A stretch of DNA of 64,000 nt from Cytophagales bacterium (GTDB lineage: Bacteria; Bacteroidota; Bacteroidia; Cytophagales; JAHDFW01), in contig CBDICC010000026.1 in assembly GCA_965277185.1 (NCBI GenBank), positions 13,079 to 77,078 of the forward strand. The letters run 5' to 3'. Positions 10,289-13,154 of this stretch are shown in pieces (the stretch's first letter is position 1; every line of letters starts with the position of its first letter). Under the pieces are notes generated by a model. That model was not told the origin of the DNA. It did no database searches and saw only the letters and a program-made list of their open reading frames with translations. Position numbers and translations under genes: made by a program.

Positions 10289-10888
10289 CTAAATTGTTTT
10301 GATTCGTACACTAAGGACCAAATAGTAATGTCCATTTTTCATTGGAGCAATGTGGTAATCAATTTTATTCTTGGTACGTTTTTTCATATCGACGAATCCA
10401 AGTCCAGCACCACCGCTATTATTCAATTTATTTTCCCGTAAAATGGTTTTATACAGTTGCTTTAATCCATCTTGGTCCAAGTCATTGATTTTATCCAACC
10501 ATGCTTTTAAGGGCTCCACGTTTTCGTACTGAATGGCGTTACCTGTCGTCACAACATAAAGTTCGTCATCCGAATCAATAACATGTCTACTTACAGACAT
10601 ATATCCTCGAATCCCAGATATTTCATCTTCCTTATACTTTGGACCAGCCGAATGACGTATGATATTCTGAAAGCATTCGACCATAATATGGTACACGCGA
10701 TTAGCCAGAAGATATTCCATACCTTCTTCATCCAACCTATCCTTTACCTGATTGGCAAAAAACTTAGTTACTTCCTGATCGACATACCCTTTATAGACAA
10801 AGAGTTGATCCCTTTTTTCGATCTCGTGGTCTAATCCAACCACATAATTTAAATATTCTTCCGAATCGTATTCCATATACTGCAACAA
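10289..10888 (-). CDS. SiaB-family protein kinase (DUF6272-like, GHKL fold)
   Basis: YKGYVDQ, VYHIMVECFQNIIRH, TTGNAI, GAGLGFVDMKKRT. Confidence 0.78.
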   Translation of the reverse strand: MLQYMEYDSEEYLNYVVGLDHEIEKRDQLFVYKGYVDQEVTKFFANQVKDRLDEEGMEYLLANRVYHIMVECFQNIIRHSAGPKYKEDEISGIRGYMSVSRHVIDSDDELYVVTTGNAIQYENVEPLKAWLDKINDLDQDGLKQLYKTILRENKLNNSGGAGLGFVDMKKRTKNKIDYHIAPMKNGHYYLVLSVRIKTI

Positions 10889-11170
10889 ACAGGGTATTGT
10901 TTAGTCCCTTTAAAGACGATAAATATAGTAAATAATATATAAGAGGAGGTTAATTTCCAATTAATTTGTTTTCTGAATTGAAACGTATTTCGAATGAGAA
11001 AATCCAATCAGTTCGTTCAGAGAATGTTAGCTTATATTCTCTAACCTAAATAAAAAACTTCCATTTCAGAATTTAAACTTCAATGATTCGTTTTCCTGGA
11101 ATCTCTAATCCAATGGAAGTTCACAGCAGTCTTTTTGAATAATTTAAAGATAATTTTTCTAAAAAAAGAC

Positions 11171-11207
11171 TATTTTCGCGCTTCTTCCTGAGTTGTAGCA
11201 GGAAGGC
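11171..11207 (+). promoter_or_regulatory. thrS promoter (-7-like TATTTTCG) followed by a leader hairpin with a tRNA-Thr anticodon-like loop
   Basis: CTTCCTG (11184-11190) pairs with CAGGAAG (11199-11205); loop AGTTGTAG contains T-TGT-A. Confidence 0.55.
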
Positions 11208-11222
11208 AAACAATAATACAAT

Positions 11223-13154
11223 ATGAAAATGATCAATATTACATTGCCAGACGGAACCGTTAAACCATATGAAAGCGGGGTTACTGGTATGGACATTGCC
11301 AACGGCATTAGTGAAGGATTGGGACGAGTAGCCCTGTCTATCAAAGTAGGAAACGAAGTTTGGGATCTTTCAAGACCTCTAACAGAGGATTCGGAAATAT
11401 CTATTCTTACGTGGAATGATACCGAAGGTAAAAACACATTCTGGCATTCATCTGCGCATTTATTAGCTGAAGCACTAGAAGCATTATATCCTGGAGCTAA
11501 ATTTGGAATTGGACCAGCGATTGATACCGGATTCTATTATGATGTAGATTTTGGGGATGTTGAATTTTCCTCAGATGACTTCCCAAAAGTGGAGGAAAAG
11601 ATGATGGAATTAGCTCGCCAAAAAAATGAATATGTTCGAACGGAAGTATCGAAAGCAGATGCCACTCGTTTTTTTACGGAAAAAGGAGATGAATATAAAT
11701 TGGATTTGATCAAAGATCTAGCCGATGGAACTATTACATTCTATCAACAAGGAGAATTTACAGATTTATGTCGTGGACCACATATCCCAAATACAGGCAC
11801 GATAAAAGCACTAAAATTAATGAATGTTGCTGGTGCGTATTGGAGAGGTGATACAGATCGTAAGCAATTAACCCGGATTTATGGGGTGTCATTCCCTAAA
11901 CAAAAGGAATTAAAGCACTATTTAGAAATTCTTGAAGAAGCTAAAAAGAGAGATCATCGTAAATTAGGTAAAGAGTTAGATCTTTTTGCCTTTTCCGAAA
12001 AAGTAGGAATGGGTCTTCCATTATGGCTTCCTAAAGGTACTATATTAAGAGAGCGTCTGGTTGACTTCATGAAAAAGGCGCAACTTAAAGCTGGATATGT
12101 TCCAGTTATCACGCCTCATATTGGAAGCAAAGAATTATATGAAACTTCAGGTCACTGGGCAAAATATGGTAAGGATTCGTTTCAACCTATTGGCACACCT
12201 AATGAAGGTGAAGAGTACATGCTCAAGCCAATGAACTGTCCACATCACTGTGAAATATATAAAGTTCGTCCAAAATCCTATAAAGATTTACCGCTTCGAT
12301 TAGCGGAATTTGGTACGGTTTATCGTTATGAGCAGAGTGGGGAATTACACGGTTTGACTCGAGTAAGAGGGTTTACTCAGGATGATTCTCACATCTTTTG
12401 TACGGATGATCAGGTGAAAGATGAGTTTATTAAAGTAATTGATCTTGTTCTATATGTGTTTACGGCGCTTGGATTTGAGAATTATGTAGCTCAAATCTCA
12501 CTTCGTGATCCTGAAGATAAAGATAAGTACATTGGGGATGACGAATCATGGGCAAAAGCAGAAAGTGCGATCATCGAATCATGTAAAGAAAAAGGACTTG
12601 ATACCGTAACTGTATTAGGAGAAGCTGCTTTCTATGGTCCTAAATTGGATTTCATGGTTAAGGATGCTTTAGGTAGAAACTGGCAATTGGGAACAATTCA
12701 GGTTGACTACAATCTTCCAAATCGCTTTGAATTGGAGTATGTTGGCGCCGATAATGCTAAGCATCGACCGGTAATGATTCACCGAGCTCCATTTGGTTCT
12801 TTGGAACGATTTATTGCCGTGTTAATTGAGCACTGTGCTGGAGATTTTCCGCTATGGTTGAGCCCGGAACAAGTGGCAGTTTTACCAGTTTCGGAAAAAT
12901 ATGAGGCTTATGCCAACGAAGTTTATGCTCAAATGGAAGATGCAGAAATTTACGGATTTGTGGACCATCGGAGCGAAAAAATGGGAAGAAAAATTCGGGA
13001 CGCAGAAGTTAAAAAAATCCCTTTCATGCTCATAGTGGGCGAAAAAGAGATGGCTGATGGTACTGTTTCAATTCGAAGACATGGCGAAGGAGACATCGGA
13101 ACCATGACAATAAAAGAGTATATTGAGCACTTTAAAGAAGTCTCTAAAGTATAA
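11223..13154 (+). CDS. thrS: threonine--tRNA ligase
   Basis: TGS domain, [48 protein letters not shown]. Confidence 0.99.

Follow-up and report, generated by a model that had tools for sequence, protein, structure and literature searches.

[quoted passage not shown] We propose that this hairpin is probably a cis-acting translational operator of thrS to which ThrRS binds. For the motif family as a whole, the operator reading deserves somewhat more confidence than for this single member. As we read the comparison, the significance of the hairpin rests on its conservation in relatives: in 70 of 188 distinct Bacteroidota thrS leaders, a stem of at least 5 bp closes a loop that contains U-N-G-U-A.

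Anatomy of the thrS leader

The thrS leader (window 11160-11225) reads ...taaaaaaagacTATTTTCGcgctTCTTCCTGagttgtagCAGGAAGgcaaacaataatacaatATG, and its parts are listed in Table 1. An earlier note on this DNA had described a 7-bp stem with U-UGU-A in its loop and had placed the G of the GU 28 nt upstream of the ATG. Both statements hold: the hairpin spans 11184-11205, and the distance from G11195 to the ATG at 11223 is 28 nt. An optional U11183.G11206 pair lengthens the stem from 7 to 8 bp. The loop has 8 nt, compared with 7 nt in a true anticodon loop. Within it, U11193-U11194-G11195-U11196-A11197 take the places of tRNA positions 33-37, with UGU as the anticodon. The genome's own tRNA-Thr(UGU) has the loop UUUGUAA.

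Table 1. Parts of the thrS leader and the gene that follows, in window coordinates
Feature	Position	Strand	Basis
-7 promoter box, Bacteroidota type, variant TATTTTCG of consensus TAnnTTTG	11171-11178	+	sequence, relatives
Hairpin 5' arm CTTCCTG (RNA CUUCCUG)	11184-11190	+	sequence, fold, stem columns of model R1
Hairpin loop, 8 nt, AGUUGUAG (DNA letters AGTTGTAG)	11191-11198	+	sequence
Hairpin 3' arm CAGGAAG	11199-11205	+	sequence, fold
A-rich spacer without Shine-Dalgarno sequence, GCAAACAAUAAUACAAU, translation initiation region	11206-11222	+	sequence
thrS, threonine--tRNA ligase, 643 aa	11223-13154	+	TIGR00418, E 2.3e-222

Five nucleotides separate the end of the -7 box from the hairpin, and 17 nt separate the 3' end of the hairpin from the thrS ATG. 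A second in-frame ATG at 11229 is the start in most relatives, most of which align from residue 3. The hairpin lies in the 5' leader of thrS, given a predicted transcription start site (TSS), and adjoins the initiation region. The spacer GCAAACAAUAAUACAAU has an A at -3, a feature of initiation regions in Bacteroidota (PMC6847099). It contains no Shine-Dalgarno (SD) sequence, and a ribosome site of the E. coli type, with an SD (domain 1) and a U-rich part of domain 3, is missing from it. Between 11080 and 11300 there is no second TNGTA hairpin, so that the window leader is a single-hairpin leader.

The gene upstream of thrS encodes a SiaB-family kinase (10289-10888). Because this gene is on the opposite strand, the thrS promoter must sit in the 334-nt gap between the two. 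Downstream of thrS follow infC (from 13316), rpmI and rplT. Over its full length the window ThrRS is homologous to that of E. coli, an enzyme whose structure has been solved together with tRNA-Thr (1QF6) and, in truncated form, together with its operator (1KOG). Relatives of the window ThrRS are found in Cytophagales and Sphingobacteriales, with 69-76% identity.

Stability and chance level of the single hairpin

In isolation the hairpin folds with -10.2 kcal/mol (z -3.15), and 2 of 200 shuffled sequences are equally stable. In its 111-nt context the structure is not unusual (z +0.41). In a pattern scan of the bacterium's own genome (7.27 Mb), 207 hairpins combine a stem of 6 bp or longer with a loop of 7-8 nt that contains TNGTA; this number is the chance level. 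In the same scan GT is not enriched over other dinucleotides at this place in the loop, and nothing points to a ThrRS regulon. Hence, the hairpin alone does not exceed what is expected by chance genome-wide. The genome scan also gives the probability that such a hairpin occurs on the sense strand of this leader of about 100 nt. This probability is about 0.0014, which is suggestive but not conclusive.

Leader samples and covariance model

We collected thrS leaders from 80 genomes, from 88 genomes across the phylum, from 29 same-order relatives and from 30 genomes of families not yet covered. The first three sets (80 + 88 + 29 genomes) yield the 188 distinct leaders; the 30 further genomes are counted separately. 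Only one other genome of the compared set (G401/L170) belongs to the same genus and family as the window bacterium.

Model R1 is a covariance model of 22 nt, made from 22 hairpins. These seeds were selected for pairing, and thus the covariation figures lean towards structure. Two tests are free of this seed bias. The blind-stem test looks, within the last 100 nt of each of the 188 leaders, at every hairpin whose stem has 6 bp or more and whose loop has 7-8 nt, and asks what this loop contains; the blind-loop test takes all TNGTA pentamers and asks whether a stem flanks them.

Comparative evidence for the motif

Hairpins with an anticodon-like loop are far more frequent in thrS leaders than in shuffled sequences. 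Of 76 leaders, 43 have T-N-GT-A in the loop of a hairpin with 5 bp or more, compared with a mean of 2.8 and a maximum of 8 in 200 shuffles. When GT at the place of positions 35-36 is replaced by any of the other 15 dinucleotides, the same 76 leaders give between 0 and 12 hits each.

The two blind tests agree with this result. TNGTA occurs in the loops of 54 of 111 leader hairpins but in only 28 of 1456 hairpins in the remainder of the same loci. Conversely, a stem of at least 5 bp flanks 89 of 152 TNGTA in leaders (59%), whereas in the background this is the case for 179 of 2410 (7.4%; odds ratio 17.6, p 6e-53).

The loop is conserved in a specific pattern. Among the 34 distinct hairpins with an 8-nt loop and with G5 and T6 given, T3 is found in 32 and A7 in 28. 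At position 4, the equivalent of N34, 25 of these hairpins have T, 7 have C and 2 have A, and the loops of relatives also include CGUA, AGUA and GGUA. [quoted passage not shown] That U33, G35, U36 and A37 are kept while N34 varies fits an enzyme that would read G35 and U36 but not N34. In identity studies of E. coli and T. thermophilus, G35 and U36 are reportedly the anticodon determinants of ThrRS. A review locates the ThrRS identity determinants in the anticodon and the acceptor stem.

The stems vary around this constant loop. When 42 distinct hairpins are aligned, 90.5% of the cells pair, compared with 45.8% when shuffled and at most 45% when slid. All seven stem pairs show double changes, and the stem sequences are unrelated. 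The motif is also specific to its place. At E up to 10, R1 has 43 matches in 443 kb searched on both strands, and 40 of the 43 lie in sense orientation at most 80 nt upstream of a thrS ATG. The earlier note had set conservation of the loop GU in relatives beforehand as one test that could refute its reading. The reading survived, with U-N-G-U-A on unrelated stems and specific to thrS. Its analogy with the E. coli thrS operator also gains support from the comparison, in which the wobble position is free and G35 and U36 are fixed.

The window hairpin is a typical member of the family. Its loop, AGUUGUAG, is the most frequent loop among relatives (17 of 89 hairpins), and its distances from the box and from the AUG are within the range of relatives. 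R1 matches it at 11184-11205 with 23.9 bits, the top match of the 64-kb window. In the own genome, where 150 of 1075 candidates were scored, the R1 search gave no match at E up to 10.

Distribution and forms in relatives

The motif is spread over many Cytophagales and Sphingobacteriales, some Chitinophagales and other families. The proximal hairpins of relatives end between -6 and +28 nt from the AUG. A single proximal hairpin 1-28 nt before the AUG is found in Cyclobacteriaceae, Roseivirga, Chryseolinea/Ohtaekwangia, Siphonobacter, Thermonemataceae and several further families.

Sphingobacteriaceae (Pedobacter, Mucilaginibacter, Sphingobacterium, Parapedobacter) have two hairpins, joined by an A/U-rich linker of about 30-35 nt. 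The distal hairpin, for example AUCAC-AUUGUAG-GUGAU, directly follows the -7 box and has a perfect 7-nt loop of the anticodon type. The proximal hairpin, AAUCAU-AGUUGUAG-AUGAUU, includes the start codon: its 3' arm consists of the AUG and the next codon. It is weak (-3.1 kcal/mol) and hence would hide the AUG only if stabilised by a ligand. One leader (L014) has a compensating extra A-U pair added to the proximal hairpin.

The congener of the window bacterium has a hairpin 5 nt after the same box, which can be drawn as CCAAU-AUUUUU-GUUGG or as CCAA-UAUUUUUG-UUGG. Its loop is degenerate and lacks G35 and A37.

About 60% of the sampled leaders lack the motif, which makes it a patchy and dispensable element. 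Among the sampled leaders it was not found in Fulvivirga, Reichenbachiella, Ekhidna, Hymenobacter, Dyadobacter and Chitinophaga, nor in two large Flavobacteriaceae-like families or in any family sampled from the remaining classes of the phylum. The leaders of Fulvivirga, Reichenbachiella, Ekhidna and others carry no hairpin, and in them thrS overlaps the stop of an upstream ORF of 356-377 aa, which holds a promoter-like box. The patchy spread within Bacteroidota favours repeated gain or loss. Patchy, dispensable occurrence is common among leader regulators.

Promoter and predicted transcription start

The hairpin is usually preceded by a promoter box. Of the 67 hairpin-bearing leaders, 52 have a -7 box ([TC]AnnTT[TC]G) whose end is 4-30 nt upstream of the first hairpin, compared with 3.2 expected, and only 5 have a box between the hairpin and the ATG. 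In Flavobacterium johnsoniae the G of the -7 box is at -5 (PMC6847099). Applied to TATTTTCG, this rule predicts the TSS at 11183, a U able to form the basal pair of the stem with G11206. The hairpin would then form the 5' end of the mRNA, as the earlier note had proposed from a -7-like element just upstream.

The window box is imperfect. TATTTTCG has a C where a T at -6 is nearly invariant in F. johnsoniae. The congener has an identical TAnnTTCGCG box at the same place, and TTCG variants of the box also precede thrS in at least eight further genomes (leaders L035, L068, L074, L109, L113, L175, L183 and L190).

Two further conserved sequences were considered. The conserved box GCATATTTG might instead be coding sequence, but it is part of a genuine upstream ORF only in Fulvivirga, Reichenbachiella, Ekhidna and similar genomes; in the others, the ORFs have 18-55 aa. 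Because the box is invariant at the DNA level, we read it as a promoter. The conserved TATATATTGTAT of Flavobacteriaceae-like leaders was rejected as an RNA element; it sits upstream of the -7 box, and we read it as a -33/UP element.

Alternative explanations

Several simpler roles for the leader can be set aside. There is no match to a tRNA at the site with aragorn or the Rfam tRNA models, and thus the hairpin is not read as a tRNA remnant. A terminator or attenuator is excluded because no U-run follows the hairpin on either strand. A leader peptide with Thr codons was also rejected: the only small intergenic ORF (10995-11045, MRKSNQFVQRMLAYIL) has no Thr codon.

A hairpin at the very 5' end of an mRNA, where the predicted TSS would place this one, may simply protect the transcript from 5'-end-dependent decay or be general structure, with a loop consensus that is due to a constraint other than ThrRS. 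The congener, which keeps a hairpin at the same place with a different loop, is in line with such a stabiliser. Yet a stabiliser needs no fixed loop, and across families U33, G35, U36 and A37 are kept as the stems change. Furthermore, the motif is specific to thrS leaders, and many relatives have their hairpin 10-30 nt after the box or overlapping the AUG, where it is not 5'-terminal. We consider this explanation unlikely as an alternative, and a stabilising role could coexist with operator function. It is still more doubtful that the loop is read by another factor with a preference for UUGUA or for anticodon loops of the U36-A37 type, such as a tRNA-modification enzyme or an RNA-binding protein, or that it forms a pseudoknot with the UACAA at 11216-11220. 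This UACAA, just before the ATG, is complementary to the loop UUGUA, and a spacer complement of at least 5 nt is found in 11 of 43 relatives, compared with 6.4 +/- 2.1 expected (30 of 1000 shuffles are as high). The excess is weak and the complement is missing in the other 32 leaders, so we rejected the pseudoknot as a general feature. A free N34 would also break the pairing, but it fits the rules of ThrRS, and the exclusive association with thrS points to ThrRS as the partner.

Finally, the window hairpin itself may be a product of chance or a decaying, functionless element, even if the motif works in other lineages. The comparable hairpins throughout the genome and the lack of GT enrichment are in line with this explanation, as are the congener without a GUA loop and the imperfect promoter box. 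We nevertheless hold it to be very improbable, since the low probability for this leader argues against it, as do a loop that is exactly the commonest variant of relatives, a stem of 7-8 bp with its calculated stability, and distances to box and AUG like those of relatives. The reading that we prefer for the window is a ThrRS-binding operator.

Proposed mechanism

Bacteroidota mRNAs have by nature no SD sequence; their translation initiation needs no SD pairing but a region, from about -20 to +20, that is unstructured and rich in A (PMC6847099). In the proposed mechanism, transcription from the -7 box would start at about 11183, with the hairpin at the 5' end of the mRNA. The 3' foot of the hairpin would then be 17 nt from the start codon, or 23 nt if translation starts at 11229. 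When ThrRS exceeds free tRNA-Thr, the C-terminal anticodon-binding domain of the enzyme would contact U33, G35, U36 and A37 of the loop. With the ThrRS dimer bound, the 30S subunit and bS1 would be kept from the initiation region, which is short, A-rich and SD-less. Competition by tRNA-Thr for the same site would relieve repression.

Such a block is plausible: a 150-kDa ThrRS dimer would sit at -39 to -18 in the window, or on the AUG itself in Sphingobacteriaceae. In the latter, ThrRS may serve as a clamp over the AUG and not as a competitor for an SD site. We infer the transcription start, the binding of ThrRS and its competition with ribosome and tRNA-Thr.

If the window and its relatives indeed hold a conserved counterpart of the E. 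coli operator, it would rank among the earliest proposals of an autoregulatory translational operator in a phylum whose ribosomes dispense with SD pairing. It would suggest that thrS is controlled by the ratio of ThrRS to tRNA-Thr in lineages without T-boxes. A swap of the anticodon-like triplet would provide a simple handle on how a protein blocks initiation that is independent of SD sequences and dependent on bS1 and A-rich regions. The 22-nt model may also serve as an annotation marker for thrS leaders of Cytophagales and Sphingobacteriales.

Comparison with known systems

No Rfam 15 family matches the hairpin, either at permissive thresholds on the leader or at the gathering score in 20 related loci. 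Full-text literature searches returned no report of a thrS operator in Bacteroidota, and neither these searches nor Rfam 15 gave a description of an E. coli-type thrS operator outside Proteobacteria.

The T-box leaders of thrS and thrZ in Firmicutes (RF00230) have the same target gene and respond to the same family of signals, the status of tRNA-Thr. The T-box ligand is the tRNA itself, bound through a specifier codon and an antiterminator. In contrast, the window leader has neither a specifier loop nor a terminator, and its mimic would bind a protein. RF00230 has no match in the leader at E up to 10 and none at the gathering score in the 20 related loci.

In yeast, AspRS, HisRS and other synthetases are thought to bind an anticodon-like stem-loop in their own mRNA (PMC6542539, PMC9976931). 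As proposed here for thrS, translation would be tuned to the tRNA supply by a stem-loop in the synthetase's own mRNA. The yeast mimics differ in being eukaryotic and cap-dependent; they concern other synthetases and are frequently found within the ORF.

The closest parallel is the thrS operator of E. coli, a textbook case of molecular mimicry in translational control. ThrRS bound to the operator hairpins prevents binding of the 30S subunit, and when the anticodon-like triplet is changed to that of Met, control passes to MetRS (PMC11088916, PMC9976931, PMC3858243). [quoted passage not shown] In the MG1655 leader, domain 4 is UUUAGC-AUUUGUUG-GCUAGA, with an 8-nt loop, and domain 2 is GUGAUCU-UUCGUGU-GGGUCAC. 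Domain 4 and the window hairpin have in common the 8-nt loop format A-N-U-U-G-U-N-G. The two hairpins of Sphingobacteriaceae with their A/U-rich linker parallel domains 4-3-2.

The differences are as marked. The window has no SD and no bipartite ribosome site of SD and U-rich part. It has one hairpin, where the mRNA is predicted to begin. Full control in E. coli takes two hairpins (domains 2 and 4), one per ThrRS subunit, with a single-stranded linker between them. A37 is conserved in the Bacteroidota motif, while E. coli has G or U there. The start codon of Sphingobacteriaceae lies in a stem, unlike that of the E. coli operator. R1 matches domain 4 of the E. coli leader at 14.5 bits and misses domain 2, and its 22 nt hold too little signal to tell homology from convergence. 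As no sequence homology can be demonstrated, we regard an independent origin of the proposed Bacteroidota operator as plausible and perhaps likely.

A wider claim goes further and is more tentative, with the balance slightly against it: autoregulation by ThrRS anticodon mimics may be recurrent and convergent across prokaryotes. The Bacteroidota form would then be a distinct one, adapted to SD-less initiation, either as a single 5'-terminal mimic or, in Sphingobacteriaceae, as a weak mimic with the AUG in its stem. The principle would be common to the Bacteroidota motif and the E. coli operator; what appears to be new is the SD-less context and the form, a single 5'-terminal hairpin or a stem that contains the AUG.

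Start codon and start region of thrS

The threonyl-tRNA synthetase gene of the window opens with two in-frame ATGs (11223-11231, MKM...). In most relatives the protein starts at the position that corresponds to the downstream ATG (11229, MINITLPDG), and therefore the true start may be 11229. The distance from the proposed anticodon-mimic hairpin to the start would then be 23 nt, versus 17 nt for a start at 11223. In the predicted fold of 11183-11250, GGCAA immediately 3' of the hairpin (11205-11210) pairs with UUGCC in thrS codons 7-9 (11243-11248). This pairing is present in both the minimum free energy and centroid structures, and it places the start region inside a large loop.

Other arrangements upstream of thrS

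In Fulvivirga, Reichenbachiella, Ekhidna and relatives, thrS follows a genuine upstream ORF of 356-377 aa, whose stop overlaps the thrS ATG. The ORF carries the peptide motif K[IV]AYL and a promoter-like box, GCATATTTG. The hairpin is absent from the thrS leaders of all seven loci listed for this box in the table. The sequences suggest an alternative route of thrS expression, either from a promoter contained within the upstream coding region or by translational coupling.

In the tabulated genomes from other classes of the phylum a tRNA gene precedes thrS (Val-GAC where readable). Many of these genomes also have a terminator-like hairpin with a U-run only ~20 nt upstream of the thrS ATG. With such a hairpin so near the ATG, thrS transcription would need either read-through or a promoter of very small size; this may be a different control.

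In the Flavobacteriaceae-like family f6, thrS leaders are only ~20-25 nt long. A conserved TATATATTGTAT lies ~20 nt upstream of the thrS -7 box (the Bacteroidota-type promoter element). The predicted start lies downstream of this sequence, which is therefore read as a probable -33/UP promoter element.

Features outside the thrS leader of the window
Feature	Locus or genome	Position or sequence
Box GCATATTTG inside upstream ORF	L001, L010, L012, L017, L033, L037, L072	~1390-1490 in each
tRNA gene before thrS, in many with a terminator-like hairpin, other classes	L153, L155, L158, L160, L163, L219, L227 and L149, L162, L226	
Conserved TATATATTGTAT	Family f6: L123, L124, L128, L129, L131-L133, L137, L138	
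Off-target hairpin-model match, at or just after thrS 3' end	L078	3475-3496
Off-target hairpin-model match, at or just after thrS 3' end	L054	3392-3413
Repeat hairpin type 1	Own genome	GTTCTGGA-TTTGTAA-TCCAGAAC
Repeat hairpin type 2	Own genome	TTTCGGA-TTTGTAA-TCCGAAA
UUUGUAA-loop hairpin locus	L201	C22 143300-145800
UUUGUAA-loop hairpin locus	L202	C48 63500-64800
UUUGUAA-loop hairpin locus	L203	C27 354700-355500

Similar hairpins elsewhere

Two of the three matches of the hairpin covariance model away from thrS leaders fall at the 3' end of the gene or just beyond it, ahead of infC.

Outside the window, the same genome holds two types of palindromic hairpin, together in at least 15 copies. Their 7-nt loop, UUUGUAA, is identical to the anticodon loop of the genome's own tRNA-Thr(UGU). 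They sit in tandem noncoding units of 286 nt and ~325 nt, and in each unit a second hairpin follows the first. Rfam returned no match to these repeats (L201-L203). They may be DNA hairpin repeats. Alternatively, they may be another look-alike of the anticodon arm.
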